Assembly: GCF_000017845.1 (NCBI RefSeq)
Contig: NC_010546.1
Span: forward strand, 1,500,001-1,532,000
Length of the DNA stretch: 32,000 bases
Source of the DNA: Crocosphaera subtropica ATCC 51142
GTDB taxonomy: Bacteria; Cyanobacteriota; Cyanobacteriia; Cyanobacteriales; Microcystaceae
Reading direction: 5' to 3'
Shown here: positions 540 through 19,856 of the stretch, one piece after another
Layout of the letters: every line of letters begins with the position of its first letter
How positions within the stretch are numbered: position 1 is the first letter of the stretch
Notes under the pieces: model-generated
What the model saw: the letters and a program-made list of their open reading frames with translations, nothing else
Told to the model about the DNA's origin: nothing
The model's database searches: none
Made by a program: the position numbers and the translations under genes

Positions 540-1532
<993 letters not shown>

Positions 1533-1545: not shown

Positions 1546-1560
1546 CGATAATCATTATTA
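1546..1560. promoter_or_regulatory. Zur-type box immediately upstream of hemB
   Basis: CGATAATCATTATTA matches at 13/15. It lies 17 nt upstream of the hemB ATG. Confidence 0.55.
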
Positions 1561-1591
1561 TATTGACATATAAAGTAGTCTACTATAATAA

Positions 1592-1606
1592 TGATAATCA
1601 TTATTA
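1592..1606. promoter_or_regulatory. Zur-type box
   Basis: TGATAATCATTATTA matches at 14/15. It belongs to a roughly 60-bp module that is about 85 percent identical to 8022-8082. Confidence 0.6.
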
Positions 1607-1652: not shown

Positions 1653-2654
1653 TTAAGAAATAACTAAACAATCATTTAACTGAGAAATTATGGCTTTTTT
1701 GTCTAAATTACGTCCAATAAAAACCAGTTGATTACTCGGCGCATTTTCCCATTCATCAGCAGTCAGATCGTAGCGAGGACCACTTAATTGAAAAATATGT
1801 CTTAACTCACTATTACTAAACCGAAGTATTCCTTTAGCACGAAATACTTCTAGAGGCATTTGTTCAGTGAGAAAATACTCAAACTTTTCCACATCAAAGG
1901 GTTTATCACTCATAAAAGAAACAGCCATAAATCCATCTGTTTCCAGATGATGACTATAATCTTTATGATCTCGTTGAAAGTTACGAAGTTGTGTTTGATA
2001 AGAATCTTCCTGAGTTAAGCCAATATCCAATAAAAAATTGAGAGGAACTTTCCCATATTCACTTGTTAAAATTCTGGCTCCAAATTTAATATTTTTAATA
2101 AATTTTTCTAATTCTTTTATTTTTAAGGATTTAACTCGATCAATTTTATTGAGGATAACCATATCGCCATAACGAATTTGACTTAAAGCTGCATCACTAT
2201 TGAAATGTTCTGGAGTAAAGGTTTCCGCATCAACCACTGTAATAATGCTATCAATACGAGTCAGAAACTTTAATTCTGTCCCCAAAAAAGTCAAGATAAT
2301 TGGCAAAGGGTCGGCTAACCCTGTGGTTTCAATAATTAGATAATCGACTTTATTTTCTTTTTCTAAAACTCGATAAACTGCTTCGATTAAACTATCATTA
2401 ATAGTACAACAAATACAACCATTTCCTAATTCTACCATATCTTCTTCAACGGATACTAATAATTGAGAGTCAATATTAATATCACCAAATTCATTGACTA
2501 AAACGGCTACTTTCAAACCTTCTTTGTTATCGAGAATTTGATTAAGTAATGTAGTTTTTCCACTGCCCAAAAATCCCGTGATTATGGTGACTGGCATTCC
2601 GGTTTTGGGAATGGTGGGTAGGGTGTCTGAGAGAGAGAATGTTAAAGAATTCAT
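1653..2654 (-). CDS. COG0523/CobW-family G3E GTPase (paralog B)
   Basis: Motifs GFLGSGKTTLLN, GCICCT, ETTGLADP and a CobW_C-like tail (FRAKGIL..LVFIGRNLD). The ORF track begins at a TTG at 2690. I prefer the ATG at 2654 (MNSLTFSLSD) because it aligns with the start of paralog C. Confidence 0.88.
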   Translation of the reverse strand: MNSLTFSLSDTLPTIPKTGMPVTIITGFLGSGKTTLLNQILDNKEGLKVAVLVNEFGDINIDSQLLVSVEEDMVELGNGCICCTINDSLIEAVYRVLEKENKVDYLIIETTGLADPLPIILTFLGTELKFLTRIDSIITVVDAETFTPEHFNSDAALSQIRYGDMVILNKIDRVKSLKIKELEKFIKNIKFGARILTSEYGKVPLNFLLDIGLTQEDSYQTQLRNFQRDHKDYSHHLETDGFMAVSFMSDKPFDVEKFEYFLTEQMPLEVFRAKGILRFSNSELRHIFQLSGPRYDLTADEWENAPSNQLVFIGRNLDKKAIISQLNDCLVIS

Positions 2655-2707
2655 AGCAATTAAATCATGTTTTGAGAGACTATTAATCAAAAAAGCAGAA
2701 AAATCAA

Positions 2708-3703
2708 TTAATGATCATCTATTAGACAAGCTTCTAAATGCGATCGCATCCTGTCGGTATCCAAATTGCGACCAATAAAAACTAATTGCGTTTTCGGGTT
2801 TTCTTTCCAGACATCATCATCAATCATAAATCGTTTGCCACTGAGATGAAAAATATGACGTAAATCACTAATATCAAACCAAATAAACCCCTTGCCTCGA
2901 AAGACAGTATCGGGCAATTGGTTATCGAGAAAATACTGAAATTTCCGAATACTAAAAGGTCGTTCACTCTCAAAAGCTAGAGAAACAAAACCATCGTTTT
3001 CTAGATGATGTTCATGTTTATCTCTTATTTTATAAGACTGAAAAGAGCTATTTTGTTCAAATAATCCGACACTTAAAATCAAAGGTAAAGGCACTTTGGC
3101 TTTAGTGGTTCGTAAAATTCTGACTCCTTCCCTTAGTTCACGAATTTTTGTTTCAATTCTATCAACAACGGAAGTTTCAACTAAATCAATTTTGTTCAGT
3201 AATATAATATCTCCATAGGCAATTTGATTAATGGCTACTTGACTATCTTTAAAGTAGTCTAAGCTAAAATTTTCGCAATCAACCACTGTAATAATTGAAT
3301 CAAGGCGTGTTATTTCTCGCAAATCTGTCCCCAAAAAAGTGAGAGCAAGCGGGCGAGGATCAGCTATTCCTGTCGTTTCTACCACAAGATAATCGAGGTC
3401 TTTTTGACGTTGCCAAATTTTAAAAACTGCCTGAACTAAATCTTCATTAATTGTGCAGCAAATACAACCATTGTTCAATTCCACCATATTATCTTCCGTA
3501 GAGACAATTAATTGATTGTCAATACCAATTTCGCCAAATTCATTCACTAAGACGGCTGCTTTTAATCCATCTTGTTGTGTCAAAATATGATTAAGTAAAG
3601 TTGTTTTTCCACTGCCTAAAAATCCCGTTATTATGGTGACTGGCATTCCGATGTTAGGAATAGTGGGCAGGGAATCTGAGAGAGAAAAGGTTAAAGATTT
3701 CAT
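2708..3703 (-). CDS. COG0523/CobW-family G3E GTPase (paralog C), tandem to B
   Basis: Motifs GFLGSGKTTLLN, GCICCT, ETTGIADP and the tail FRGKGFIW..LVFIGRNLD. Confidence 0.9.
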   Translation of the reverse strand: MKSLTFSLSDSLPTIPNIGMPVTIITGFLGSGKTTLLNHILTQQDGLKAAVLVNEFGEIGIDNQLIVSTEDNMVELNNGCICCTINEDLVQAVFKIWQRQKDLDYLVVETTGIADPRPLALTFLGTDLREITRLDSIITVVDCENFSLDYFKDSQVAINQIAYGDIILLNKIDLVETSVVDRIETKIRELREGVRILRTTKAKVPLPLILSVGLFEQNSSFQSYKIRDKHEHHLENDGFVSLAFESERPFSIRKFQYFLDNQLPDTVFRGKGFIWFDISDLRHIFHLSGKRFMIDDDVWKENPKTQLVFIGRNLDTDRMRSHLEACLIDDH

Positions 3704-3774: not shown

Positions 3775-4473
3775 TTAATAGGCAACTGTTCTAAACTTCA
3801 GAGCATTGCTATAAGGGTTATACAGGGTATAAATTGCTTGATGGGGGGTTCGTCCCACATTGCCCACCCCAATAATTCGCCGTTGGGTCGTTTCTATGGT
3901 TTGAGAAGGGTGTTGACTATCCAGTGTGGTTACACTGGTGGTAATTGCTGCTTCTTGTAGTTGATAGTCAAAGGTTTGGCCGGAACGTCCACAAAATAAA
4001 GAATTAACCCCCATCCGTTGCAGACGATCTAATAGTTGCCAAGGGGAGGTTTTTGGAGTCAGTTCCTCGCTTACACTGACACTACTGCCATGAATGAGCA
4101 AACAATCTAATTCAACGAAGCCAAAATCTAGGTTTCTCAGCCATTGTATTGTGTCCCGTGAAACCTTATCCCACAATTGTTTAGCAGTATCCACTCCATA
4201 TTGTTCGAGGAGTTCTGTCGGTTCAGCAGTTGCCCCTAACCCATGCAAAATTAAACACTGTTCTTCCCACCATCCCCGACACACTTGGGGGAATAATTCA
4301 TCAGAACGAGGATTACGGATGCGATGAACTAATTGCTCTGTTTCTGGGTGAATTCCCACTAAATCACCCAGAATATATAATTCTTCCACCGGAACCGTTT
4401 GTTCTTGAATATCCTGAATCACCGCCTCATAAGCGGTTAAATTACCTTCAATGCCAGTTAAAATTGCCCACAT
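3775..4473 (-). CDS. Degenerate calcineurin-like metallophosphoesterase paralog (probable pseudo-enzyme)
   Basis: 232 aa. It shares the scaffold blocks ILGDLVG, LIHGSS and LFCG with the neighbouring MPE. The ligand blocks differ: GIE for DxH, RGWW for GN(H/Y)D and GRSG for GHxH. Confidence 0.65.
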   Translation of the reverse strand: MWAILTGIEGNLTAYEAVIQDIQEQTVPVEELYILGDLVGIHPETEQLVHRIRNPRSDELFPQVCRGWWEEQCLILHGLGATAEPTELLEQYGVDTAKQLWDKVSRDTIQWLRNLDFGFVELDCLLIHGSSVSVSEELTPKTSPWQLLDRLQRMGVNSLFCGRSGQTFDYQLQEAAITTSVTTLDSQHPSQTIETTQRRIIGVGNVGRTPHQAIYTLYNPYSNALKFRTVAY

Positions 4474-4491
4474 ATTTCTAAATTTGATGAA

Positions 4492-5307
4492 TTATCGTTC
4501 ACACACATGGGTCGGATCATCCGCTTTTTCTGCAAATTCTAGACCCTGTGCGAGTCGCCAAGCAAAAATCGGAGGCAACCCAACCTCAACGATGGCACGA
4601 CAAGTCTCCTGATAATCATAGGGGACTTCTCGTAAGGTCACTTGTTCTGTTTGAGTATCGTAGATAGCGTAAGTCGCATTGGGACGACCATGACGGGGTT
4701 CCCCCACTGACCCCACATTAATAATGCGTTTTAAAGGAGTTGTAAACTGTAAAACTTGCTCATTTTCAGGGGTAGATTGACTGACTTTGACTTGCAGTTG
4801 TCCTGACTCTAAAGTACGAATATAGGGAATATGAGTGTGACCACAAAATAGAATATCTGCATCGGAGGATAACACCCGTTCTAAAGCAGCAAAAGCATCA
4901 ATTTCTGGTAAAAGATATTCATGGTTACTTTGGGGACTCCCATGAACAAAACAGCAATTTTCTAACTTTAAAGTATGAGGTAATTGGGCAAGATATTGGC
5001 GATTTTCTAGGGTAATTTGTTGCTTTGTCCATTCATGGGCTAATTTTCCTCTTTTTTCAGCTAACAAAGATGGATAACTACATTCACAAGCGTTTAATCC
5101 TTCGACAATATCTTCATCCCAACACCCTTGAACGGTGGGAATATTTAGGTTGCGAATCGTTTCAACGACTTCATTGGGATAGGGTCCATAGCCCACTAAA
5201 TCCCCTAGGCAATAAATTTGGTCACAGGAATAGTGATCAATATCTTTGAGAACCGCTTCTAAGGCTTTCATATTGCCATGAAGACAAGACAAAACGGCAA
5301 TTTTCAT
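4492..5307 (-). CDS. Calcineurin-like metallophosphoesterase with Cys-substituted metal ligands
   Basis: The blocks are SCLHGN (C for D of DxH), CLGDLVGYGP, QGCWDED (C for N of GNxD), FVHGSP and FCGHTHIP. The ATG at 5307 shares one nt with the TGA of the upstream gene. A GTG at 5310 is an alternative start. Confidence 0.8.
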   Translation of the reverse strand: MKIAVLSCLHGNMKALEAVLKDIDHYSCDQIYCLGDLVGYGPYPNEVVETIRNLNIPTVQGCWDEDIVEGLNACECSYPSLLAEKRGKLAHEWTKQQITLENRQYLAQLPHTLKLENCCFVHGSPQSNHEYLLPEIDAFAALERVLSSDADILFCGHTHIPYIRTLESGQLQVKVSQSTPENEQVLQFTTPLKRIINVGSVGEPRHGRPNATYAIYDTQTEQVTLREVPYDYQETCRAIVEVGLPPIFAWRLAQGLEFAEKADDPTHVCER

Positions 5308-6086
5308 CACACTTTCTCCTTTTCTAATACTAAAGATTGTTTAACCTGTTGTTGATAATAAAAAATCGCTTCATCGGAGAGACAAAACTCTCCCAATGTA
5401 TCAGCAATGGCTTGTTTATCTAAATTACGCCCGACAATTTCTAATCCACTAAATTGTTGCGGTCTACCTTCTAAATTAAGGGGAAAGTTTAGAGGACAAA
5501 AGTCTTTTGGATACTTCCCTGATAAAAATTCTCCATAAATCCATTGGCCATCTAAAATAGTGAAAATTCCTTTGATTCTAATCACCTCTCCATAAGCTCC
5601 GTGAATTAATTCTAACCAAAAAGTTTCTAGGCTAGAAAAATCTAAAACCTCTCCTGTTAAAGTAGCCCGATAAATTTGTAAATCTAAACTATTGGGTAAT
5701 ACTAAATCATTTTTTCCATTGATTTCTTCGTTGAGAATAATTTCATCAGTCCACATTTGCCAGTCTTGTTTTTGTTCAACTTTTGAGATGAGCGCAAGGC
5801 GATGACAATTCAGTTGTTTCAGAAAAGAATCAATGGATTTTATCTCTAAATACCAAGGAACTTCTATATAGATATCATGGTGGTTAGATAAATGTCTTAA
5901 TTTATTTTCTTCTCCGTTGGCGAGAATTGAGAGATGTGGAAATTCACTTTTCAAATAAATGGCATCAATAGGAAACAAGTCTGTTTGAGGACTCCAATAA
6001 ATAATTGGAAGAGTAGCCTTTGACATTTTTTCTTTAATTAAGTGGGTTTTACCTGAACTAATGTTTCCCATAATTACAGTAATCAT
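5307..6086 (-). CDS. Divergent COG0523-like P-loop protein lacking the CxCC metal motif
   Basis: 259 aa. N-terminus is MITVIMGNISSGKTHL (P-loop). DIYIEVPWYLE sits where DYLIIETTGLAD would be. The C-terminus (VIRIKGIF..GLEIVGRNLDKQAIADTL) parallels the CobW_C tails of paralogs B, C and D. No GCICCT equivalent is present. Confidence 0.6.
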   Translation of the reverse strand: MITVIMGNISSGKTHLIKEKMSKATLPIIYWSPQTDLFPIDAIYLKSEFPHLSILANGEENKLRHLSNHHDIYIEVPWYLEIKSIDSFLKQLNCHRLALISKVEQKQDWQMWTDEIILNEEINGKNDLVLPNSLDLQIYRATLTGEVLDFSSLETFWLELIHGAYGEVIRIKGIFTILDGQWIYGEFLSGKYPKDFCPLNFPLNLEGRPQQFSGLEIVGRNLDKQAIADTLGEFCLSDEAIFYYQQQVKQSLVLEKEKV

Positions 6087-6163: not shown

Positions 6164-8011
6164 TTAAAAAGCCTTTTTATTCGTAATAGCTATTTTAAAC
6201 CTCTCCCGTAAATCTGCAACAGTTATTGTTCCTAAATCTCCTCCTTGACGAGTGCGAATACTCAGAGTTTGACTTTCAACTTCGCGCTTACCAACAATAG
6301 CAACAACGGGGATTTTTTCCAATTCACTAAGACGAATTTGTTTGCCTAAACGCTCCCCACTTGTATCAACTTCTACTCGATATCCAGCTTTTTTTAACCT
6401 AATTGCCACTGTTTTAGCATAGTCCTGTTGTTCATCACTAACAGGTAATAATCGCAGTTGAATGGGAGCTAACCACAAAGGAAAATCCCCTGCATAATTC
6501 TCAATTAAGATGCCAAAAAATCGCTCTAACGAGCCAAAAATAGCCCGATGAATCATAATAGGTTGTTGGCGACTTCCATCAGCAGCTACATATTCCATGC
6601 CAAAACGTTCAGGTAGATTAAAATCAACTTGAATGGTGGAACATTGCCACAGCCTTCCGATGGCATCTTTAATTTTAATATCAATTTTGGGTCCATAAAA
6701 AGCTCCTCCTCCTCGATCTTCAAGATAATTCCATTGTTTATTATTTAAGGCTTTTATTAATGCTTCAGTTGCTAATTGCCAAACTTGATCACTCCCTACA
6801 GATTTTTCAGGACGAGTGGATAAATTGACTTCATAATCAGTAAACCCAAAATCAGAAAGTATTTTTTCCGTTAAATTTAGGACCCCCAGAATTTCATCAG
6901 CAATTTGTTCCGGTAAACAGAAAATATGAGCATCATCTTGAGTAAACCCTCGTACCCGCATTAAACCATGTAAGACCCCAGATTTTTCATAGCGATAAAC
7001 TGTTCCTAATTCTGCCCATTTTAAAGGAAATTCTCGATAAGAATGCAGGTCATCTTTATAGGTTAAAACATGAAAAGGACAGTTCATCGGTTTAATTTGA
7101 TAAGTTTGATGTTCAACAGCCATTGCCTCAAACATATTTTCTCGATAAAAGTCCCAATGTCCTGATGTTTTCCATAGGTCTAAATTAGCAACATGGGGCG
7201 TATAAAGAAATTGATATCCGTCTTCTAAATGAGCGTTGCGCCAATAATCTTCGATTAAATAACGCATCATTGCCCCTCTAGGATGCCAAAAAACTAAGCC
7301 CCCTCCAGCATCTTCTTGGATACTAAAGAGTTTTAATTGTTGTCCTAACTTGCGGTGATCTCTCCGTTGTGCTTCTTCTTTTTGTGTCAGATAAGCTTGT
7401 AACTGTTCGGGAGTTTCCCACGCTGTCCCATAAATGCGCTGTAACTGCGGTTTGCTCTCATCTCCTTGCCAATAAGCCCCCGCCACACTTTCTAAAGCAA
7501 AAGCCTCCGGGTGAATTTCTCCCGTAAAATTGAGATGAGGCCCCGCACATAAATCCCACCAACAGGTATCAGGAGGCACGAGAACAGGGTTAATTAAAGA
7601 GGGTTGTTGTTCTGGTATATTCCCTCGTCCTCCGTCGGGACTCCCAATAAAATAGCGGGTAATGGACTCTGTTTCAGGAATGCTCTCTAAAATTTCAAGT
7701 TTATAGGGTTCGTTAAGTTCTGCAATTTCTGTCTGAATTTCAGCACGATCTACCACTTCTCGGATAATAGGTAGGTTTGCTTTGATAATTCTTCTCATTT
7801 CTCCTTCAATCTTTTTCATATCTTCTGGAGTAAAGGGGGTCAAGCGGTCAAAGTCGTAGTAAAAACCTGTTTCTGTCCAGGGGCCAATGGTTACTTTTGT
7901 CTCAGGAAACAGAGTTTGAACCGCCATCCCTAAAACATGAGCGCAGGTATGACGGATTTTTACCAGTTGTTGTCGGTCTTTATCTAGGAGTGGGGTGAGT
8001 TGGTTACTCAT
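6164..8011 (-). CDS. thrS: Threonyl-tRNA synthetase paralog lacking the N-terminal TGS domain
   Basis: Class II ThrRS blocks are present: RHTCAHVLG, DLCAGPH, RDHRKLG, KPMNCPFH, FTQDDAHIF, MIHRAIFGSLERF. The start is set at the ATG at 8011 (MSNQLTP). The longer ORF-track start at 8164 would run through the Zur boxes and the divergent gene. Confidence 0.92.
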   Translation of the reverse strand: MSNQLTPLLDKDRQQLVKIRHTCAHVLGMAVQTLFPETKVTIGPWTETGFYYDFDRLTPFTPEDMKKIEGEMRRIIKANLPIIREVVDRAEIQTEIAELNEPYKLEILESIPETESITRYFIGSPDGGRGNIPEQQPSLINPVLVPPDTCWWDLCAGPHLNFTGEIHPEAFALESVAGAYWQGDESKPQLQRIYGTAWETPEQLQAYLTQKEEAQRRDHRKLGQQLKLFSIQEDAGGGLVFWHPRGAMMRYLIEDYWRNAHLEDGYQFLYTPHVANLDLWKTSGHWDFYRENMFEAMAVEHQTYQIKPMNCPFHVLTYKDDLHSYREFPLKWAELGTVYRYEKSGVLHGLMRVRGFTQDDAHIFCLPEQIADEILGVLNLTEKILSDFGFTDYEVNLSTRPEKSVGSDQVWQLATEALIKALNNKQWNYLEDRGGGAFYGPKIDIKIKDAIGRLWQCSTIQVDFNLPERFGMEYVAADGSRQQPIMIHRAIFGSLERFFGILIENYAGDFPLWLAPIQLRLLPVSDEQQDYAKTVAIRLKKAGYRVEVDTSGERLGKQIRLSELEKIPVVAIVGKREVESQTLSIRTRQGGDLGTITVADLRERFKIAITNKKAF

Positions 8012-8021
8012 GCTATAAAAA

Positions 8022-8036
8022 TGATAATCATTATTA
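8022..8036. promoter_or_regulatory. Zur-type box, 11 nt upstream of the thrS ATG
   Basis: TGATAATCATTATTA matches at 14/15. Confidence 0.6.
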
Positions 8037-8038
8037 TC

Positions 8039-8065
8039 TTGACACAAAGAATAGTTTACTATAAA
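8039..8065 (+). promoter_or_regulatory. Sigma70-like promoter for the FAD oxidoreductase gene
   Basis: TTGACA (8039-8044), a 15-nt spacer, then TATAAA (8060-8065). The minus strand reads TATAGT over 8063-8058, a candidate thrS -10. The spacer is shorter than the optimum. Confidence 0.4.
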
Positions 8066-8067
8066 AA

Positions 8068-8082
8068 TGATAATCATTATCA
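8068..8082. promoter_or_regulatory. Perfect Zur-type palindrome
   Basis: TGATAATCATTATCA matches at 15/15 and is a perfect 7-1-7 inverted repeat. It lies directly after the + strand -10 element. Confidence 0.7.
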
Positions 8083-8097
8083 AAAAAGTGACCTGTG

Positions 8098-9315
8098 ATG
8101 AATTCCGCAAACTTAGAAAAGGTGGACATAGCCATTGTAGGTGCCGGTCCGCAAGCGTTAACATTAGTGACTCATATTCTGCAAAAAAAGGCCAAATTTC
8201 GCCGTCGTATGGTGGTTTTAGACCCTAGTGGCAGTTGGTTAAGTCAATGGCGACATCAGTTTGCCGCCCAAAACATCCCCCATTTAAGATCCCCGGCGGT
8301 ACATCATCCCCATCCTAACCCCTATCAGTTGAGAAAATTTGCCGAACATCGTTCAGATGAATTATTTGCCCCTTATGACTTACCAGGGACAAATTTATTT
8401 AATGATTTTTGTGAGGATCTTGTTAAAAGTTGGCAGTTAGAAAATTTAGTTTATTCTGATAAAGTAACTCGAATTTTGCCGATAAAAGTTCGTTCATATA
8501 ATCGATTTCAATTAATGTTAGAAAGTGGTAATCAATTAATTGTTCGTCGAGTTATTTTAGCAACAGGGGGTGGAATTCCTCAATTTCCTGATTGGGTCAA
8601 TAACATTAAAAAAACCTATCCTCAAGATAGATTATTACATTCTCAGCAGATAGATTTAAGAACAGTCAAATTAAAAAATAAACGAATTTTAATTATTGGT
8701 GGAGGCTTAACTTCTGGACATTTAGCAGTGGGGGCAATTGAGCAAGGGGCTAAGGTTATTTTAATGGCAAGACGACAGTTAAAAGAAAAATTATTTGACG
8801 CTGATCCAGGTTGGTTAGGTCCAAAATATTTAAAGGATTTTTATTTAGAATTGGACTGGGAAAAGCGATGGACCCTGATTCATCAAGCCAGAGATGGGGG
8901 ATCAATGACTCCTGCTATGATGTTAAAATTAAGACGGATGACAAGGGATAAACCTTTAACCCTTGAAGAAAATTGTCAAGTGGTTAAAGCTGATTGGAAA
9001 GATAATCAATGGCAAATAAAATGTCAAGATGAAAAACATTTTTCTTGTGATCAAATTTGGTTAGCCACAGGGACACAATTTAGGGTTAATGATCATCCTT
9101 TGTTCACTGATATCCAGAAAAATTATCCGACTCAATTTGTTCAAGGATTACCTATTTTAGATCAATATTTACGTTGGCCATCCTTAGAATTATTTATAAT
9201 GGGAGGCTTATCTGCTTTACAAATTGGTCCCGTTGCCCGTAATTTAGCAGGGGCAATTAAAGGGAGTCAAAGAATTGCTGAAGCCTTAATTAAGCCCAGT
9301 TTAGCTATGCTTTAA
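8098..9315 (+). CDS. FAD/NAD(P)-binding oxidoreductase (two-dinucleotide-fold, N-hydroxylating monooxygenase-like)
   Basis: IAIVGAGPQALT (GxGxxA) lies near the N-terminus and a second fold, ILIIGGGLTSGHLA, lies mid-protein. The start is either the ATG at 8098 or the GTG at 8095. Confidence 0.7.
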   Translation: MNSANLEKVDIAIVGAGPQALTLVTHILQKKAKFRRRMVVLDPSGSWLSQWRHQFAAQNIPHLRSPAVHHPHPNPYQLRKFAEHRSDELFAPYDLPGTNLFNDFCEDLVKSWQLENLVYSDKVTRILPIKVRSYNRFQLMLESGNQLIVRRVILATGGGIPQFPDWVNNIKKTYPQDRLLHSQQIDLRTVKLKNKRILIIGGGLTSGHLAVGAIEQGAKVILMARRQLKEKLFDADPGWLGPKYLKDFYLELDWEKRWTLIHQARDGGSMTPAMMLKLRRMTRDKPLTLEENCQVVKADWKDNQWQIKCQDEKHFSCDQIWLATGTQFRVNDHPLFTDIQKNYPTQFVQGLPILDQYLRWPSLELFIMGGLSALQIGPVARNLAGAIKGSQRIAEALIKPSLAML

Positions 9316-10066: not shown

Positions 10067-12580
10067 CTACAGAAGAATATTCCATAACCCAATCGCTAAA
10101 ATCGAAGTAGATATATGTTGAACCATTAAATATTGAAAAGGCAATTTAGCAATTTTTTGAGTCAAAATGATTGATAAAACCACTCCAAAAATTAACAAGG
10201 TTTCTTGTAAAAAAGTAATAACAGCCGGATGAGCCACCATAACAGGAACTCCTTGCACAGAAAAGCCAAAGGTAGCTAAAGTAATGGGCAAGATTTGCCC
10301 AGCTTCTCCTAAACCAAGGGGCAAGTAATAAGCCAAATTCCCCGCTAAAACTAAAGGTAAATAACCGTATGCTAATTCCTTGAAGGGGCGAATTTTAACA
10401 GTGGATTGAAACCCGCCTAAAAAACCCATGATTTGATGAAAAACCAGAGGGAGTAATGCCGGCAAACTTAATACTAGAACAGCTAATCCTGAATGTATCC
10501 AAAATTGATTGAGATCCCAGGAAAACCCCAATTGAGCTTGTACCTGTGGCAAGCGATGTAAAAACACTGCATCTAATAATAAAAGCAGCAAAGCCACTTC
10601 ATAACTTCGGGGGACATGAGTGGTCCATAACTCAATCCCAGGTGGGCGTAAATTAAACTCCACAGAACGATGGGGACAAGCTTTTAAACAGGTCATACAT
10701 AAAACGCAATCTCGATTGTCTTCAAGTTGGGCAGGATGTGAATAGAGAGGACAACCATTGGTTTCTAACCCTTCCCCTTTTTGGGGGCCACCTTTGTAAC
10801 ATTGATAAGTCGTGCATTGTGCAGAACAGGTTCCTTGTTGCCCTCGTAATTCTGTCATGGAGAGTTTAGCAAACATTCCATTCATGCCACCAATGGGACA
10901 TAAATAACGACACCAAAAGCGACGTTCAAAAATCGTTGAGCAAATCATTGCTCCAGCCGTGATTAATAACAATAAACAAGAAGATAAATAAGCCGTGTTT
11001 TTTAAATCCCAGAGTTCTTCCCACAACAAAATTACGGCAAATAAACCCCATAAAAACCATCCACCCCAAGTTTCAGCTTCGTGACGGGGCCATTTTTTAA
11101 GTTTTCTCGGAAATAACCATAATGACACTTTTTGAGTGAGTTCTCCATAAATCATAAACGGACAAACAGCACACCACAATCTACCCACAAAGAGAAAACC
11201 TATCAACACCAGTGGCCACCACCAAGCCCAAAATAGATTTAAGGCAAAATTTTCTGCTCTTGTTTGGGGGCCAATCCACAGAATAATATTGATTAGAGCA
11301 AAGGCGATTACAGTAAAACCATAATTAAGTCTGTCAGGATACCATGGACTGCGAAAAAACTGACGTAAGCGAGGATATCCTTTGAGAAGATTAAAGCGAA
11401 ATTGCTGTTTTTTGCTTTGTGATGGCCAAATAATTTCTTCGGTGATTTCCTGATAGCCTTCTAACTGTACCAGCGCCCGTTCGATCAGATTTTCCAGTTC
11501 TCTCAAATTGTTGGGGAAGTCGTAAGCTTGGAGTTTTCGGATAGCTTCGGGAGTAATGCTAACTTTGGCTGTTCCCCTTCTGCGACACATCAAACTGATG
11601 TAGTAAGTCACTAAATCTTCAATGTCTTTTTTGCGAACTCGCAAAGGGGGAACTTTAATAATATTCTCTATCAACCCATCAATATTAGAGAGCTTTTTTT
11701 CAGAGATAACAATAATTCGACATTGACTGGTTTTGGCACTCGAAGGAGTGTTTTCTGAACGGCTTACGGGGTAATAAGTACCATCTTTTAATAATTGAGC
11801 AATGGGTTTGAATAACTCAGGGGAAAGTTCTTGAAGATTATTGAGTATCAGCGTTCCTTTGCCTAATGCTTCAAGTAAGCTCAATTTGCCCCCAACTCGC
11901 CCAAATAATTCAGCCCCACTGGCTTGTAATTGAGAACAGTTAATTTGAATAATTGGCTCTCGACGAAAAGGGGAACTAAAATGAAGTAAGGTGGCGAGAT
12001 TGTCTTTTTGTAGGCCAGGTTCGCCAAAAATCAATACAGGTTGACGATTATCTGAGAAGTTTTTGATCTGCGATCGCAATTTAATAGCGTAACGACTCTT
12101 ACCAATGACTCCCCGTTTCACTTTCGTGACTAAATAAGGACGTAAAATGGTTTGTCGTTCCTGTTGAAAACTTAATTCAGAAGATAATTCTTTAAGTTCT
12201 AAGGCTAATTGTTGCGAAAAGGCTTGAGTTATTTCTGGATATTGTTGGAGTAATGACTTAAAGTCTTCGGCATCTATGCACCATAATTCGCATCGGTTTA
12301 ACGTCACTAATGTTCTGGAAACGGGTTGCTCTAATATTAACGCCCTGAGATTAATTAAGGTTCCTGTCAGTAAACTAGCTTCTGGGGTTCCTTGACTTTG
12401 AATTTGTCCAGATTTGAGAATATAAAGTCTTTCAGGGGCAGTTCCACCTTTAACTAACGTTTGTTCCCCTTCCACCGTAATTAACTTCATGTGAAGGGCG
12501 ATGGCTTCAAGCACCTCAGAAGTTAATACAGTTAGGGGAGTATGTTCTCTTAGCCAAGTGATTAAATCAGAAGTAGCCAT
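10067..12580 (-). CDS. Multidomain protein: cNMP-binding-like domain, degenerate sigma54-interaction AAA+ domain, polytopic membrane 4Fe-4S (NapH/MauN-like) domain
   Basis: The N-terminus has LYILKSGQI..LRALIL..SRTLV. The AAA+ blocks are VLIFGEPGLQKD, AELFG, GTLILNNLQEL, PPLRVRKKDIEDL and FPNNLRELENLIE. The C-terminus has multiple TM helices with CAVCPF, CRYLCPIGG and CVLCMTCLKACPH. Confidence 0.8.
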   Translation of the reverse strand: MATSDLITWLREHTPLTVLTSEVLEAIALHMKLITVEGEQTLVKGGTAPERLYILKSGQIQSQGTPEASLLTGTLINLRALILEQPVSRTLVTLNRCELWCIDAEDFKSLLQQYPEITQAFSQQLALELKELSSELSFQQERQTILRPYLVTKVKRGVIGKSRYAIKLRSQIKNFSDNRQPVLIFGEPGLQKDNLATLLHFSSPFRREPIIQINCSQLQASGAELFGRVGGKLSLLEALGKGTLILNNLQELSPELFKPIAQLLKDGTYYPVSRSENTPSSAKTSQCRIIVISEKKLSNIDGLIENIIKVPPLRVRKKDIEDLVTYYISLMCRRRGTAKVSITPEAIRKLQAYDFPNNLRELENLIERALVQLEGYQEITEEIIWPSQSKKQQFRFNLLKGYPRLRQFFRSPWYPDRLNYGFTVIAFALINIILWIGPQTRAENFALNLFWAWWWPLVLIGFLFVGRLWCAVCPFMIYGELTQKVSLWLFPRKLKKWPRHEAETWGGWFLWGLFAVILLWEELWDLKNTAYLSSCLLLLITAGAMICSTIFERRFWCRYLCPIGGMNGMFAKLSMTELRGQQGTCSAQCTTYQCYKGGPQKGEGLETNGCPLYSHPAQLEDNRDCVLCMTCLKACPHRSVEFNLRPPGIELWTTHVPRSYEVALLLLLLDAVFLHRLPQVQAQLGFSWDLNQFWIHSGLAVLVLSLPALLPLVFHQIMGFLGGFQSTVKIRPFKELAYGYLPLVLAGNLAYYLPLGLGEAGQILPITLATFGFSVQGVPVMVAHPAVITFLQETLLIFGVVLSIILTQKIAKLPFQYLMVQHISTSILAIGLWNILL

Positions 12581-13752: not shown

Positions 13753-14778
13753 TTATGCCAAACACTGATTAAGTTGTTGTTTGAGCATTTCCCCATCTAA
13801 ATTACGTCCAATTAACACTAATTGATTTCGGGGAGTGGTTTTCCAGTCATCAGCATTCATCGTATAACGTTTCCCACTCAGTTGAAAAATATGGCGTAAT
13901 TGACTTTCTTGAAACCATAATATTCCTTTTGCTCGAAAAACATTAGTAGTCAAATCATCCACAAAAAAGTTTTGAAATTTCTCTACAATAAAAGGGCGAT
14001 CGCTTTCAAAAGCAATAGAAACAAATCCATCTATGGTTAAATGATCAGAATGGTGATGGTGATGATCGTGATCATGTTCATGATCATGGTGGTGATGATG
14101 TTCAGTTGTGTCTTCTATCCTAAAATTCTCAGCATTATTAACATCAATATCGAGAATTAAAGGAAGAGGAACTTCTGTATATTGACTATGAATAATTCTC
14201 GCCCCTGACTTAATTTGATTAATATCTGTTTCTAATTGTTTAACTTTTTCATCTGAGATTAAATCGGTTTTATTGAGCAGAATAATATCACCATAAGTAA
14301 TCTGACGTAATGCAGCTTCACTTTGAGAATGTTCAGAGGTAAAGGTTTCTGCATCAACAACAGTTAAAATAGAATCGAGTCGGGTCATGTCCCGTAATTC
14401 AGTATTCAGAAAGGTTAAAGCAATAGGCAACGGATCAGCCACTCCTGTGGTTTCTAAAATTAAATAATCAATGTTATCCCCTTGCTCAAGAACTTGATAA
14501 ACGGCCTCAACTAAATCATCATTAATCGTGCAACAAATACAACCATTACTTAATGCCACCATATTTTCATCAATGGAGACTAATAACTGACTATCAATAT
14601 CAATATCACCAAACTCATTGACTAATACGGCAACTTTTAACTGTTGATTATTGGTCAAAATATGGTTAACTAAAGTGGTTTTTCCACTGCCTAAAAAACC
14701 TGTAATAATGGTTACAGGCATTCCCTGTTTAGGAAGATTTAAAGGAGATTTGTTAGGAACGGATAATGTTTGAGTCAT
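13753..14778 (-). CDS. COG0523/CobW-family G3E GTPase with His-rich insert (paralog D)
   Basis: Motifs GFLGSGKTTLVN, GCICCT, ETTGVADP and the CobW_C tail. The insert EHHHHHDHEHDHDHHHHHSDH carries 14 His in 21 residues. Confidence 0.92.
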   Translation of the reverse strand: MTQTLSVPNKSPLNLPKQGMPVTIITGFLGSGKTTLVNHILTNNQQLKVAVLVNEFGDIDIDSQLLVSIDENMVALSNGCICCTINDDLVEAVYQVLEQGDNIDYLILETTGVADPLPIALTFLNTELRDMTRLDSILTVVDAETFTSEHSQSEAALRQITYGDIILLNKTDLISDEKVKQLETDINQIKSGARIIHSQYTEVPLPLILDIDVNNAENFRIEDTTEHHHHHDHEHDHDHHHHHSDHLTIDGFVSIAFESDRPFIVEKFQNFFVDDLTTNVFRAKGILWFQESQLRHIFQLSGKRYTMNADDWKTTPRNQLVLIGRNLDGEMLKQQLNQCLA

Positions 14779-14846: not shown

Positions 14847-15485
14847 TTAACCTTGAAATGTGGGAGAATGACGAATTAAACTCATAAATTCTTGCCGAGT
14901 TTTGGCATCCTCTGCAAATACACCTCGCACTGCACTGGTAGTGGTCCAAGAACCCGGTTTTTGAACGCCACGCATAACCATGCACATATGGGTCGCTTCT
15001 ACCACAACGGCCACCCCTTTGGGTTGTAATAATCCTTGTAAGGCATCTGCAATCTGTGCGGTGAGGCGTTCTTGTACCTGTAACCGTCGTCCGTACATTT
15101 CACAAATACGGGCAATTTTTGAGAGGCCAATGACTTTCCCATCCGGAATATAAGCAACATGAGCGCGACCCAAAATGGGTAAAATATGATGCTCACAGGA
15201 ACTAAAGAGATCAATATCCCTCACTAGAACCATTTCATCGGTATTTTCGTGAAATACTGCCCCATTGAGCAGTTCATCAAGGGATTGATGATAGCCAGAG
15301 GTCAAAAATTTTAGGGCTTTGACCACCCGTTTTGGCGTGTCTCTGAGTCCTTCTCGGTCAGGATCTTCTCCCAGTCCTAAAAGTAGGGTTCGGACGGCCT
15401 GACGCATTTCTTCCTCGGTGACAGGAGGATGGGATGAACTGACAAGTCTCGGCAAAGCAGAATTATATTCCTTGGATAAAGTCAT
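14847..15485 (-). CDS. folE: GTP cyclohydrolase I, type IA (Zn-ligand triad retained)
   Basis: 212 aa. It has SSCEHHILP and [10 protein letters not shown] (the Cys/His/Cys zinc triad positions of FolE) and QVQERLT. Confidence 0.93.
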
Positions 15486-15512: not shown

Positions 15513-15527
15513 TGATAATCGTTCTCA
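15513..15527. promoter_or_regulatory. Zur-type box upstream of folE
   Basis: TGATAATCGTTCTCA matches at 13/15. It lies 28 nt upstream of the folE ATG. Confidence 0.5.
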
Positions 15528-15592: not shown

Positions 15593-17101
15593 TTACATTT
15601 CTAGGGTTGATAATTGATGCAATAATGCCTCTTTATCTGCTTCACTTAAAGAGTCTCCTGATTGAATCTTGTCACAAATGTCGGGAAGTTTTTCTGTTAC
15701 CATCTGACAAATTTTTGTTTCTGCTTCTCTAATATTTTCTAGGGGGACATCATCTAAAATTCCTTCGTTGATAGCAAATAAAACAGCAATTTGTTCAGCA
15801 ACAGAAAGAGGATGAGATTGAGGTTGTTTGAGGATTTCTCGCACTCGTCTACCTCGTTCTAAGGTTTGTCGGGTATCTTCATCTAATTGGGTTCCAAAAC
15901 GGGCAAAAACTTCGACTTCTTGGAATTGAGAATAGGATAAGCGTAAATCTCCGGCTACTTCTCCATAAGCCCGTAATTGGGTTTTTCCGCCCACCCGTGA
16001 CACTGATTTTCCCACAGAAACCGCAGGTAAAATTCCTTTTTGATAGAGATCCGGAGACAGATAAATTTGACCGTCTGTGATAGAAATTAAATTAGTGGGA
16101 ATATAAGCAGAAATACTTTGAGCCTGGGTTTCAATAATGGGTAAGGCAGTTAAAGAACCGCCGCCCCATTCTTCTCGAAGATGGGTAGAACGTTCGAGTA
16201 ATCGAGAGTGAATGTAAAAAATATCGCCGGGATAGGCTTCTCTTCCGGGAGGACGGCGTAATAAGAGAGAAAGCTCTCGATAAGCCCAAGCATGACGGGT
16301 TAAATCATCATAGACAATTAAAACATCCCGTCCCTTTTCCATAAAATACTCCCCGATAGAAGTAGCTGCATAAGGGGTAATATATTGCAAACCGGGGGGA
16401 TCTTCTCCATCGGCTACGACCACGATAGAATAGTCTAGGGCTTCTGCTTGCCGTAATTGTTCGATAACCTTGGCAACCGCCGAAGTACGTTGACCAATGG
16501 CGCAATAAATACAAATAACATCCTTATCCTTTTGATTTAATATGGTATCCACTGCGATCGCCGTTTTTCCAATTTGGCGATCGCCGATAATCAGTTCTCG
16601 CTGTCCCCGGCCGACGGGTATTAACGCATCAACCACTTTTAACCCGGTTTGTAAGGGAACCGTAACCGGCGCACGATGGATAAAAGGGGGTGCTTTGCGT
16701 TCGATGGGAAATTGAGTTTCAGTAGAGATGGTTCCTTGATTATCTAAAGGACGACCTAAACCGTCAACAATACGTCCTAATAAGGCTTCTCCCACGGGAA
16801 TTTGTACAATTTTACCGGTTCGTTTAACTTCTTGACCGGCTTCTAAATGTTCGCTATTTCCTAATAGAATAACCCCTAATTCATCTACGTCTAAGTTAAA
16901 GGCAATCCCTAAAATATCCCCTGGAAAACGCACTAATTCATCGGCTTTAACGTTGGGTAAACCGATAACTTTAGCGACTCCTTGATCAATGGACTTCAGA
17001 ATCCCAATTTCTCGCGGTTGAATTTTGGCTTGATAGTTATTTAATGTTTCGTCAAGCTGAGTAAGGGTATTTTCAAGAACGGTTTGTAAGGTTTTTTCCA
17101 T
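15593..17101 (-). CDS. atpA: N-type ATPase alpha subunit
   Basis: 502 aa. It has the Walker A GDRQIGKT, and F1-alpha blocks are present throughout. The N-type assignment comes from the operon context. Confidence 0.92.
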
Positions 17102-17115
17102 TGTTTATTTTACAT

Positions 17116-17319
17116 TCATTGATTAGTTTCTTCAATTGCTTTGATCACTTGTTTAGTAATTTTAGGATGACGAATTTTTCCAGAGTGGAAAGGAACAACA
17201 ACTCGAATCTCATTTTTAAGATAAATTCGATGACTTCCCTGAGTTCTCAATAAAATAAAATCAGCATCAAACAGCAGTTTTTCTGCTTCTTTAGCGGTTA
17301 ATCTTGGCAGTTTAGGCAA
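17116..17319 (-). CDS. hicA: HicA-family mRNA interferase toxin
   Basis: 67 aa. LTAKEAEKLL..RTQGSHRIY..VVVPFHSGK.I fits the YcfA/HicA pattern, including the GSH catalytic His. Confidence 0.85.
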   Translation of the reverse strand: MPKLPRLTAKEAEKLLFDADFILLRTQGSHRIYLKNEIRVVVPFHSGKIRHPKITKQVIKAIEETNQ

Positions 17320-17536
17320 CGTTAACCTCTATACTCATGGTTAAAATTTCTTGATTAAGTAAAGTTTCCTTTTCTTCCTCAGATAAGGTTGATAAATAGA
17401 GTTCAATGGCTTCTTGAATATTTCTTTTGACTTCTTCGACGGTATCTCCTTGACTCTGACATCCTTCTAATTGAGGACAATAAGCATAATATCCATCTTC
17501 ATCTTTTTCAATAATAATACTAATTTGATATGACAT
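17312..17536 (-). CDS. hicB: HicB-family antitoxin (short, N-terminal HicB fold only)
   Basis: 74 aa. IIIEKDEDGYYAYCPQLEGCQSQGDTVEEVKRNIQEAIELYL is a typical HicB/UPF0150 pattern. It overlaps hicA by 8 nt. Confidence 0.85.
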   Translation of the reverse strand: MSYQISIIIEKDEDGYYAYCPQLEGCQSQGDTVEEVKRNIQEAIELYLSTLSEEEKETLLNQEILTMSIEVNVA

Positions 17537-17558
17537 AATGAGTGATTCCTATTTAATA

Positions 17559-18293
17559 TTATATTTCTAAAGCTTCTACATAGTCCTTTAAATTCCAAGC
17601 AATTTTATAATCGCTGGCTTGTAATTCAATGCCACAAATTAAGTCTGAATTGGTCATAAATTGTACATTATCACCTTGATAAATGTGAGTTTGCTGGAGT
17701 GAACTTAGAAGGCGATTGCGACTTTCAGGGGAAATTTCAAAATGACTACGAATGATTAAACCATTATCTGTTGTGTTAAGAGAGTTGGCTAAATTTTCTC
17801 GCTCTTTTTCTGATAAATTTTCGAGACGATGAATAAATTGATTAATGATTTGTTGTTCTAAAGAAGCATTAGCTAAATCTCCTAAAACATGACCAGTAAT
17901 CTTATAAATTTGCTGCATGATCTTTTCTTGAAACCTATCAAAAAATTGAGCTTTTTCTCGCTCTAGTGATTCGTCCCAAGTCTTGCGTTTTTGTTCAACA
18001 TCTTGACGTGCTTCTTCCACCAAATTATCATATTTTTCATCTGCTTTAGTTTGGGCTTGAATCATTATTTCTTGTTTTTTTTCTTCTAATTCTTGTTGTT
18101 TTTTCTGATAAGAATTAGCCTCATTTTTAGCAGATTTTTTTTCTTTTTCTGCATCTTGCCAACGATTTTCAATTTCCTGTTGACGAGCTTTAATTGTTTT
18201 TACAATCGGTTTATATAAAAAACGATTCAGTAAAAAAACTAAAATGAGGAAATTAATGATTTGAGCAACAATGGTAAACCAATCAATTAGCAC
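17559..18293 (-). CDS. atpF: N-type ATPase b subunit (long form)
   Basis: 244 aa with one N-terminal TM helix followed by a long charged coiled coil. Its position after the c subunit supports the call. Confidence 0.8.
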   Translation of the reverse strand: MLIDWFTIVAQIINFLILVFLLNRFLYKPIVKTIKARQQEIENRWQDAEKEKKSAKNEANSYQKKQQELEEKKQEIMIQAQTKADEKYDNLVEEARQDVEQKRKTWDESLEREKAQFFDRFQEKIMQQIYKITGHVLGDLANASLEQQIINQFIHRLENLSEKERENLANSLNTTDNGLIIRSHFEISPESRNRLLSSLQQTHIYQGDNVQFMTNSDLICGIELQASDYKIAWNLKDYVEALEI

Positions 18294-18296
18294 GAG

Positions 18297-18575
18297 TTAA
18301 CCCCCTGCATTTTGTACAAAATAATTCCAAAAAGGATTAGCAAAAATTAAAATCATCGAAACAACAAAACAATAAATTGCGGTTGATTCTACTAAAGCTA
18401 AACCCACAAATAAAGTACGAGTAATCGTATTAGCTTTATCCGGTTGTTGTGCTAAAGCTCGTAAGGCATTCGCCAAGGCTAACCCTTCTCCAATAGCAGG
18501 GGCAACGGAACCAATAGCAATGGTTAATCCTGCGGTAATAATGGAAACGATACCCGTTAAACCTAGATTGTCCAT
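18297..18575 (-). CDS. atpE: N-type ATPase c subunit with Na+-type ligand set
   Basis: 92 aa hairpin. Helix 2 carries LVESTAIY (the E-S-T..Y motif). Helix 1 carries AIGEG, with Glu at the position of Gln32 in the Ilyobacter tartaricus c subunit. Confidence 0.9.
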   Translation of the reverse strand: MDNLGLTGIVSIITAGLTIAIGSVAPAIGEGLALANALRALAQQPDKANTITRTLFVGLALVESTAIYCFVVSMILIFANPFWNYFVQNAGG

Positions 18576-18613
18576 CTAAAAATCTCCTGATTTTTGTAAT
18601 GAAATCTTTTCTT

Positions 18614-19306
18614 TTATGCGTGATGATTGCCAGTTTTCCGTTGTTGAAGATTCATCCCTGATGCAATATAAACCATTGCCAGAATAGTAAAAACATAGGC
18701 TTGAATCACTCCCACTAATAAACCAAATAAGGTCATCACAGCCGGGAAAAATAAAGGAACAATGGAAATTAAAATAGCCACTAATAAACTGGTACTCATA
18801 ATATTACCAAAAAGACGAATCGCCAGAGAAACAGTGCGGGATATTTCACTGATCAAATTAAAGGGTAACATCACAGGAGTGGGTTGAATATAATGGCGCA
18901 AATAGTTAGTAATGCCGACATTTTTAATGCCATAAATAGGCACAGCAACAAATACACATAATGCTAACGCTGCTGTAGTAGAAAGAGAGCCAGCCGGCGA
19001 CTGATAAACTGGGAAAATGGTTAATAAATTGGCCATAGTAATGAATAAAAATAATGTGCCAATAAAAGGTAAAAATTGATCCGCTTTTTGTTGACTGGCA
19101 TCTCGAATTTGTTGGCGAATTTGTTCAACAATAATTTCTAAGGCAACTTGCCAACGAGATAGAGGGGGTTCGATGGATAAGTTTCTAGTAATTAGCCAAG
19201 ATCCTAACACTAAAATTAGCATTACTAACCAACTAAAAACAATAGTAGCGTTAAGATTTATCCATTGCCATTGCCAATAAATGATACTGTCAGGGGTGAT
19301 ATCCAT
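18614..19306 (-). CDS. atpB: N-type ATPase a subunit
   Basis: 230 aa polytopic protein with the conserved Arg block SLAIRLFGNIMS. Confidence 0.88.
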   Translation of the reverse strand: MDITPDSIIYWQWQWINLNATIVFSWLVMLILVLGSWLITRNLSIEPPLSRWQVALEIIVEQIRQQIRDASQQKADQFLPFIGTLFLFITMANLLTIFPVYQSPAGSLSTTAALALCVFVAVPIYGIKNVGITNYLRHYIQPTPVMLPFNLISEISRTVSLAIRLFGNIMSTSLLVAILISIVPLFFPAVMTLFGLLVGVIQAYVFTILAMVYIASGMNLQQRKTGNHHA

Positions 19307-19383
19307 ATCATGTTAAATTGCTGAATGTTTACTACAAAAGACGGCAGGAGAGCAGAAAGAAAATATATTTGTAGCTTCAATAA

Positions 19384-19680: not shown

Positions 19681-19786
19681 AATTTTATCCTCATTAAGTT
19701 ATCAAATAGATAATTATTAATTTGTTAATTTGTTGTGCATTAATCATGGCTTATTTAATACTTTAGTACAAACGTAAAAACGCTTT

Positions 19787-19854
19787 CTCCCTGCTCCCTA
19801 CTCCCCACTCCCCTTCAATCTCAATTAGCAATTTAGATGCTTAATAGCTTAACC
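19787..19854. repeat. Heptamer-plus-tail repeat element inside the N-ATPase operon
   Basis: The heptamers are ctccctg ctcccta ctcccca ctcccct. A tail follows, tcaatctcaattagcaatttagatgcttaatagcttaacc, which is about 75 percent identical to 22318-22358. The element ends 2 nt from the atpQ stop codon. Confidence 0.75.
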
Positions 19855-19856
19855 TT

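Follow-up and report, generated by a model that had tools for sequence, protein, structure and literature searches.

A three-gene module in a zinc-starvation island

We analyzed a 32,000-nucleotide stretch of the Crocosphaera subtropica ATCC 51142 genome (contig NC_010546.1, positions 1,500,001 to 1,532,000; hereafter, the window) and focused on three neighboring genes, cce_1494, cce_1493, and cce_1492, whose products we denote A, B, and C, respectively (A and C match the products of these loci with 100% identity). A preliminary description of the locus, made from the letters of the sequence alone, had presented them as a tightly packed, same-strand trio, and the open reading frame (ORF) coordinates bear this out: the stop codon of A overlaps the start of B by 4 nt if B begins at a GTG, or by 1 nt if it begins at an ATG, and 18 nt separate B from C. 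The trio is preceded by a paralog of thrS and followed by two COG0523 genes, and no convincing terminator was found between the genes of this thrS-A-B-C-COG0523-COG0523 stretch (Table 1).

Table 1 Genes and Zur-box-like sites around the A-B-C trio, with positions counted from the first nucleotide of the window.
Feature	Position	Strand	Length	Remarks
hemB	1529..540	minus		Asp-rich ALDPY...GHDG site
Second canonical COG0523 GTPase	2690..1653	minus		cobW E 2e-55, CobW_C E 1e-21
Canonical COG0523 GTPase	3703..2708	minus		cobW E 1e-59, CobW_C E 7e-22; GCICC and ETTG present
C (cce_1492)	4473..3775	minus	232 aa	Ligand-poor paralog of B
B (cce_1493)	5310..4492	minus	272 aa from GTG; 271 aa from ATG at 5307	Metallophos_2
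A (cce_1494)	6086..5307	minus	259 aa	CobW_C-bearing, predicted degenerate COG0523/G3E-type P-loop NTPase
thrS paralog	8011..6164	minus		TIGR00418 E 2e-212; leads the apparent operon thrS-A-B-C-COG0523-COG0523
Two tandem Zur-box-like 7-1-7 palindromes	8022-8036, 8068-8082			Each with an overlapping weaker match (8016..8082)
Flavoprotein, FAD/NAD(P)-binding	8095..9315	plus		Pfam NAD_binding_9 E 3e-12; divergent from thrS, same Zur boxes
Third COG0523 gene	13753-14778	minus		Downstream of folE
folE	14847-15485	minus		Zur-like box at 15513-15527
Further Zur-like boxes	479-532, 1546-1606			Flanking hemB

The start of the thrS paralog, called at 8164 by the ORF caller, was revised to the ATG at 8011; the intervening extension (8011-8164) runs through the Zur boxes, which there translate as ...NNDYH.... 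Upstream of the revised start lie two palindromes, in agreement with the preliminary description, which had placed Zur boxes at this gene. Both sit in the 83-nt spacer between thrS and the divergently transcribed flavoprotein gene, and the one at 8068-8082 is a perfect TGATAATGATTATCA. Allowing up to three mismatches, the window holds 25 Zur-box-like matches, compared with 2.2 expected from shuffled sequences. Since these boxes group upstream of thrS and the flavoprotein gene, of hemB, and of folE (15485), as well as at 479-532, the window is a multi-operon zinc-starvation island.

B carries cysteines at two metal-ligand positions

B matches the Pfam family Metallophos_2 (PF12850) at E 2.4e-22, with 80 bits against a cut-off of 27. 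The preliminary description had proposed that cysteines replace two canonical ligands of this metallophosphoesterase (MPE). The phmmer alignment of B with the PDB entry 3rqz (E 6.5e-35) places both in ligand columns: C9 pairs with the Asp of SDVHAN and C63 with the Asn of GNHD. Motif I of B thus reads SCLHGN, with its His kept, and motif III reads GCWD, while the GD motif, the His of HGS, and GHTH are intact, as had also been described. Overall, five of the seven catalytic-site ligands are kept, together with the subfamily motif GSVG-x-PR-x-G that B has in common with canonical enzymes. Across 136 full-length representatives clustered at 50% identity, the motif-I column is Asp in 128 and Cys in six, and the motif-III column is Asn in 128 and Cys in five.

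All 121 cyanobacterial B homologs keep both C9 and C63, an invariance that is not due to chance. The complete set of invariant residues in these homologs comprises C9, H11, D37, C63, W64, D65, C75, C77, H123, H158, and H160, and further E204, H207, H268, and C270. Beyond the two swaps, this set includes four extra Cys/His residues, namely a C75-x-C77 pair after motif III and a C-terminal H268-x-C270, bringing the invariant cysteines of B to five. The joint invariance of these positions in the 121 homologs marks the two ligand swaps as a package with the CxC and the C-terminal HxC extension. Moreover, the cysteine swaps and the C-terminal cysteine tail co-occur in every member of the double-Cys clade that we saw, and no single-swap intermediate was present among those members. 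According to the established MPE ligand scheme, each metal of the dinuclear site would trade one oxygen donor for a thiolate; for the phosphoesterase Rv0805, experiments have shown that the motif-III Asn is a metal ligand (PMC3776917).

An AlphaFold2 (AF2) model of B has a core with predicted local distance difference test (pLDDT) values above 90; the CxC loop (60-73) and the C-terminal tail (36-42) are both left unplaced. Searched with Foldseek, the model finds 3rqz (E 2.4e-20, template modeling score 0.70-0.78), 1nnw and 2gju, and SapH (3qfm). The first of these, an uncharacterized MPE of Sphaerobacter, is the closest solved relative of B by both sequence and fold. The nearest characterized structure is that of SapH (Spr1479) of Streptococcus pneumoniae, an asymmetric diadenosine tetraphosphate (Ap4A) hydrolase and phosphodiesterase (E 1.9e-8 by sequence and E 1.7e-14 by fold). 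B has in common with SapH and 3rqz the Metallophos_2 fold, the length class, motifs II, IV, and V, and the C-terminal helical region. It differs from them in having Cys in place of both the canonical motif-I Asp and the motif-III Asn, in its CxC insert, in the changes at E204 and H207, and in its HxC/CxC tail; moreover, no pseudo-paralog, nucleoside triphosphatase (NTPase) partner, or Zur context is known for either protein. Judged by these alignments, B is best described as a predicted dinuclear MPE-fold protein of the 3rqz/SapH type in which Cys replaces one hard ligand per site.

The wider B subfamily offered two side observations. A search for fusion ("Rosetta stone") proteins yielded only one, P0423, which joins a canonical B relative to an extracytoplasmic function (ECF) sigma-factor domain (Sigma70_r2 and r4), hinting that some subfamily members act in signaling. 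Separately, canonical relatives carrying Asp and Asn, with 34-36% identity to B, adjoin ACR3 arsenite-efflux genes on Bacteroidota plasmids (H8 and H15). A metallophosphatase is also mentioned in a paper on a Deinococcus ars cluster (PMC9807832), and members of the wider subfamily may play a part in arsenic clusters.

C is a conserved, ligand-poor paralog of B

C aligns with B in BLASTP at 30% identity (E 8e-27), and the B profile matches C ORFs at E 1e-26 to 1e-32; against Pfam, C has no match. Its residues at the seven ligand positions are G7, E9, D37, W68, H128, R163, and G165, such that only D37 and H128 are kept, and the corresponding motifs read TGIEGN, GWWE, and GRSG. C is thus the tandem paralog with most ligands lost that the preliminary description had recognized. 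We considered whether C could be a decaying pseudogene and rejected this possibility: members of the C family are 62-72% identical to C across cyanobacteria and have invariant motifs of their own, foremost C65-x-G-W-W-E-E-Q-C73. The pattern is that of a conserved, putative pseudo-phosphoesterase under strong purifying selection, and C is most likely a non-catalytic partner subunit.

Inactive subunits with an MPE fold include Vps29 and the B-subunits of DNA polymerases alpha, delta, and epsilon. Like them, C retains the MPE scaffold and is still under selection after losing most ligands. Another ligand-poor example is the Pyrococcus pair PF1291/PH1004 (1nnw and 2gju, which match B at about E 1e-13). 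With ANIAGN and GKYD at motifs I and III, these proteins lack the motif-I Asp and His as well as the motif-III Asn; they have no known partner or function. C differs from all of these systems in being encoded beside, and apparently co-regulated with, a ligand-bearing paralog, and in its unique CxGWWEEQC motif.

A is a COG0523-derived protein without the metal-binding motif

The family of A retains a P-loop. Its Walker A motif reads GNISSGKT in A (G7..G12-K13-T14), with G12 and K13 invariant and Thr or Ser at position 14 in 48 of 48 family members, and two acidic residues, D41 and E75, are invariant as well. In the family alignment, CxCC, ETTG, and NKxD are absent from all members. The sole remnant at the ETTG position is the invariant Glu of a YIE-x-PW motif (E75; YIEVPW in A itself). 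In the neighboring true COG0523 proteins, by comparison, C80-x-C82-C83 is invariant.

Against Pfam, A reaches CobW_C only below the threshold (E 0.018, 15.3 bits, cut-off 22) and does not match cobW. A more sensitive profile comparison by hhalign, using 38 homologs of A against cyanobacterial COG0523 proteins, aligned residues 147-242 of A with the COG0523 CobW_C domain at 93% probability (E 2.5e-7). The same family profile retrieved nothing but P-loop noise from the PDB, and we therefore predicted the structure of A. The AF2 model (pLDDT 88.4, predicted template modeling score 0.86) has Escherichia coli YjiA as its top three Foldseek matches (4ixm, 4ixn, and 1nij; E 2.6e-8 to 6.5e-7), followed by NTPases and GTPases of the SIMIBI class, including the signal recognition particle (SRP), HypB, UreG, and ParF types. 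Alignment, profile, and model agree with the preliminary description of A as a relative of COG0523 with a P-loop and a CobW_C-like tail but neither CxCC nor ETTG, and they point to a G3E-derived NTPase with a two-domain fold that has lost its own metal-binding motif.

A therefore resembles the COG0523 zinc metallochaperone GTPases, such as E. coli YjiA, ZigA, ZagA, and ZNG1, in its combination of a SIMIBI NTPase domain with CobW_C and in its location within a Zur cluster beside true COG0523 genes. It differs from them in having no CxCC, no ETTG switch II, no NKxD guanine motif, and no cobW match in Pfam, and it falls about 70-90 residues short of the canonical length. MeaB, a metal-free G3E chaperone, likewise has no intrinsic metal-binding Cys motif, and by this analogy A could be a gating factor. 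A further parallel is nitrile hydratase, a metalloprotein of alpha and beta subunits with Cys ligands whose gene lies next to that of a G3E-family, COG0523-type accessory NTPase. What this system has in common with the module is a Cys-ligand metalloprotein beside a G3E NTPase; the folds are unrelated, the nitrile hydratase activator retains its metal-binding motif, and the system is not known to be under zinc-starvation regulation.

The A-B pair is the conserved core of the module

Homologs of B with 70-82% identity (one with 96%) occur in Nostocales, Chroococcales, Oscillatoriales, and other cyanobacterial orders, and a genome scan with the C family detected C relatives in 559 species genomes. 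For gene order and box analysis, we used a sample of 80 fetched genome loci, 61 of which have sufficient upstream flank. In 54 of these 61 loci, B is found no more than 3.5 kb upstream of C, and in 50 of them A adjoins B. A and B share 4 or 1 nt at the A stop and B start in 53 of 57 loci, which argues for translational coupling of the two genes.

The neighbors of the trio vary and are almost all of zinc-regulon types, namely an Asp-type hemB, a thrS paralog, COG0523, folE, and the flavoprotein; in Nostoc PCC 7524, the trio adjoins dapB. A specific tie of the trio to thrS or the adjacent COG0523 pair was considered and rejected, as neighbors differ among genomes. The operon context given in the preliminary description thus holds in this window and does not hold as a conserved link: the conserved core consists of A and B, which appear to be translationally coupled. 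The trio is nonetheless common and is linked to Zur-box-like sites and zinc-regulon genes, as opposed to being widespread and free of such associations.

The flavoprotein gene heads a flavoprotein-A-B-C operon with a box in front in many Nostocales, and the flavoprotein may be part of the module. The protein shows weak similarity to lysine/ornithine oxygenases; a search for a curated family or a close PDB relative found neither.

Two further observations concern the surroundings of the module and of its COG0523 neighbors. Plasmid A of Trichormus variabilis ATCC 29413 (locus L092) carries a large zinc cluster made up of znuA/znuC, hemB, thrS, DUF1636, COG0523, an S-adenosylmethionine (SAM)-dependent methyltransferase, and hisI, and ending in A-B-C. 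This shows that the module travels on conjugative plasmids with other zinc-regulon paralogs. Additionally, COG0523 genes are repeatedly paired with a gene for a WD40 beta-propeller, for example next to znuA in Nostoc PCC 7524 (locus L003, 13424-15612) and in loci L104 (923-4581) and L101 (9798-12787).

Zur-like boxes and expression of the module

Over the 80 loci, we counted 159 Zur-box-like sites, compared with 4.2 expected from shuffled sequences. Of 53 A genes, 25 have a box directly in front. C is detached from B in 32 cases, and in 22 of these a box precedes C. In Nostoc PCC 7524, despite the dapB neighbor, a box is located 23 nt upstream of A. In two further loci (L030 and L074), the ORF calls of A carry an NDYHY N-terminal extension, which indicates a box just upstream of A, as in the thrS paralog of the window. 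Judging by these Zur-box-like sequences, A-B-C appears to be under Zur control.

Published data bear on this regulation in two organisms. The Anabaena thrS2 operon, which resembles the operon in the window, has been experimentally shown to be repressed by Zur (PMC4787780). In Synechococcus PCC 7002, the genes hemB-II, folE-II, G0131, and G0132 on the plasmid pAQ7 are induced in a zur mutant and by N,N,N',N'-tetrakis(2-pyridylmethyl)ethylenediamine (TPEN; PMC4628125). Mapping by gene order identified G0131 as a homolog of A truncated to 165 aa; G0132 is the flavoprotein ortholog. In this model strain, the locus (L093) is decayed: B is deleted, G0130 is an unrelated 235-aa insert, and C survives as a 111-aa remnant, G0129. 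The sister strains PCC 7117, PCC 73109, and NIES-970 carry B and A, and an intact A-B-C was confirmed in PCC 7117 (L091). The induction of G0131 in the zur mutant and by TPEN thus indicates that the promoter before A is responsive to zinc and Zur in the PCC 7002 lineage. In the supplement of an Anabaena zur exoproteome study, All4725 is listed, and neither the tags alr4726-8, which we had guessed, nor the word phosphoesterase was found.

A divergent branch of double-Cys phosphoesterases

The search of representatives and a metagenome scan additionally revealed a divergent branch with 38-47% identity to B. Its members have SC-x-HGN, GCWD, a CxC, and a C-terminal C-x-C, and their loci are without A and C. 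The contigs that carry them range from 39 to 72% GC, which indicates that the branch spans diverse organisms. In 14 of 24 loci, the phosphoesterase gene adjoins one for a FeoB-like or Gate-domain membrane protein, and genes for COG0523 (sometimes in a COG0523-WD40-COG0523 arrangement), Fur-family and Crp-type regulators, and TonB-dependent receptors are often nearby. COG0523-WD40 pairs in metagenomic loci were also seen adjoining the divergent double-Cys MPE.

The cyanobacterial and the FeoB-linked loci thus tie a thiolate-substituted MPE to metal-homeostasis genes in two independent settings. We can envisage, as an unlikely but far-reaching generalization, that the double-Cys clade forms an unrecognized class of MPE-fold metalloproteins whose dinuclear site has been rebuilt with thiolates, a CxC loop, and a Cys-carrying C-terminal tail for metal trafficking or sensing in place of ordinary phosphoester hydrolysis, acting as obligate partners or clients of metal-handling NTPases. 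The partners would be a CxCC-less COG0523 derivative and a pseudo-MPE in cyanobacteria, and, with the same small likelihood, a FeoB-like transporter and COG0523 elsewhere. If true, the response of bacteria to low zinc or low metal would gain a new component that spans phyla.

A putative low-zinc module and its possible functions

The reading that we favor, with a probability of roughly 40%, is that cce_1494-1493-1492 constitutes a conserved cyanobacterial low-zinc module, apparently controlled by Zur, in which A loads or gates B, and B together with C hydrolyzes a phosphoester. Under low zinc, Zur would leave its boxes and A, B, and C would be made. The thiolate-enriched site of B could then be metallated at very low buffered zinc, or could take a softer substitute metal. 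A would load or gate this site through nucleotide binding or hydrolysis, as MeaB, UreG, and COG0523 proteins do for their clients, and B and C together would hydrolyze a phosphoester, probably a nucleotide-type substrate. A hydrolytic role is the single most likely one for B because five of seven ligands and the GSVG-x-PR-x-G motif are kept and because its nearest characterized relative is a nucleotide phosphodiesterase. The preliminary description had offered two interpretations, a metal-swapped replacement enzyme with a regulatory or chaperone-like partner, or a client/chaperone set for the adjacent G3E GTPases; its observations are confirmed, and its interpretation is partly supported.

Several points weigh against the favored reading. 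The motif-III His is a Trp in B, and the closest canonical relatives have a Tyr there. With thiolate ligands, a dinuclear site is a weaker Lewis acid for the hydrolysis of phosphate esters. With the CxC loop and the tail unplaced by AF2, clustering of the extra Cys and His residues at the active site is unproven, and A, being without ETTG and NKxD, may not hydrolyze GTP at all. In a count confined to the region directly before each gene, roughly half of the A genes showed no box; most of these come after a different gene of zinc-regulon type that shares their strand. In PCC 7002, the zur mutant showed no induction of G0130 or of G0129, which carries a phosphoesterase annotation (PMC4628125), although the non-induction of decayed remnants is weak counter-evidence. 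Known zinc-sparing paralogs usually lose Cys ligands, as described in a 2024 review of Zur-regulated paralogs (PMC11672702), whereas B gains them. Finally, we found no activity, metal-content, or interaction data in the literature for any member of the module.

The main rival explanation is that B has turned its MPE fold to metal handling. It would be a high-affinity, thiolate- and imidazole-based metal acceptor or buffer that passes zinc or another metal between importers and G3E chaperones, with A and C serving as adaptors. The six invariant extra Cys/His residues of B, the gained cysteines included, and the absence of the motif-III His would suit such a role, as would the FeoB-like or Gate-domain partners of the divergent branch and the COG0523, Fur-family, and TonB-receptor genes near them. 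Overexpression of the MPE Rv0805 is also known to disturb the Zur and IdeR regulons in a manner that depends on its metal ligand, for which the authors suggested a metal sink (PMC3776917). However, the retained ligands and GSVG-x-PR-x-G motif would be needless in a mere carrier, and the cyanobacterial loci are without a FeoB-like partner. To our knowledge, there is no known metallochaperone with an MPE fold, and we regard this explanation as possible, if rather unlikely. We see classical zinc sparing, in which B and C would replace a zinc-requiring housekeeping phosphoesterase of the same subfamily that fails when zinc is low, and A would be incidental or a maturation factor, as decidedly unlikely. 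It would parallel HemB2, FolE, and ThrRS-T2 of the same cluster, and fits both the presence of the trio in operons and clusters of paralog-type hemB (with the Asp-rich site), folE, and thrS, with which it shares the Zur-like boxes, and the general concept of Zur-regulated paralogs (PMC11672702). Set against the paralogs of this kind (HemB2, the FolE paralog, Anabaena ThrRS T2, PyrC2, and DksA2), the module has the regulon-type context, Zur-like boxes, and operons in common. The paralogs, however, typically lose Cys or turn metal-promiscuous according to the same review, the opposite direction to the Cys gain of B, which in addition comes with two dedicated accessory proteins. Furthermore, no canonical counterpart was identified in the same genomes, which were not searched as wholes; subfamily relatives are not known to need zinc, and no metal assignment was found for them; and 70-82% identity across the phylum is unusually constrained for a back-up enzyme.

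It is very unlikely, in our view, that the Cys/His set of B instead binds an iron-sulfur (Fe-S) or mixed cluster, or acts as redox thiols, with B and the co-regulated flavoprotein carrying out a redox reaction instead of hydrolysis. In many loci, the flavoprotein gene either immediately precedes A-B-C or is divergently oriented to it, and it is co-induced in the PCC 7002 zur mutant (PMC4628125). B also has five invariant Cys and several His, with a CxC loop and tail that the model leaves unplaced. Nevertheless, B has no recognizable Fe-S motif spacing, and the flavoprotein is missing from the divergent branch and from many cyanobacterial loci. We know of no precedent for such a cluster in the MPE superfamily. 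That the three genes form no functional unit at all, being unrelated housekeeping genes that merely share a zinc island in this strain, is already disfavored and highly improbable. Immediate neighbors do differ between genomes, as with dapB in Nostoc PCC 7524, but the A-B-C order and the A-B overlap are kept in dozens of genomes, boxes front A or a detached C even where the neighbors differ (as in that same Nostoc locus), and the A homolog is induced in the zur mutant (PMC4628125).

Independent of its exact role, the module is real and uncharacterized, with parts that belong to known superfamilies; it is not a categorically new system. No NCBIfam model scores above its cut-off for A, B, or C, and the NCBI names seen in source records and plasmid annotation are generic (metallophosphoesterase family protein, metallophosphatase, and GTP-binding protein). 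Within the collection of papers searched by locus tag and keyword, none connected a phosphoesterase of this kind with Zur or COG0523, and none contained metallophosphoesterase, COG0523, and zinc together. The word phosphoesterase was not found in the accessible part of the 2024 review of Zur-regulated paralogs (PMC11672702). The preliminary description, which knew of no characterized equivalent, agrees with these searches.

Our view of bacterial survival under zinc scarcity comes mainly from Zur regulons, and few clients or partners of COG0523 chaperones are known. The module represents a well-conserved candidate set of such clients or partners, complete with its own degenerate G3E protein. 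B provides a natural experiment, a dinuclear hydrolase site re-ligated with thiolates in the direction opposite to the zinc-sparing trend, and C a putative pseudo-enzyme partner retained by strong selection. Given the 559 species genomes with C relatives and a sister clade at 39-72% GC, a defined function would annotate many genes, and it could show how the cyanobacteria that drive carbon and nitrogen cycling distribute zinc or a substitute metal.

Additional features of the window

An Rfam search of the window detected no RNA elements. Directly downstream of the folE/COG0523 pair, on the minus strand (15593-21991), lies a second set of F-type ATPase genes in an unusual order that resembles an N-ATPase operon, comprising a 479-aa beta-like subunit, a 133-aa ORF, subunit a, subunit b, and a 502-aa alpha subunit. 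Also on the minus strand, positions 10067-12580 encode an 837-aa protein with an unusual combination of cyclic nucleotide monophosphate (cNMP)-binding, sigma-54-interaction AAA+, and membrane Fer4_5 (4Fe-4S) domains.

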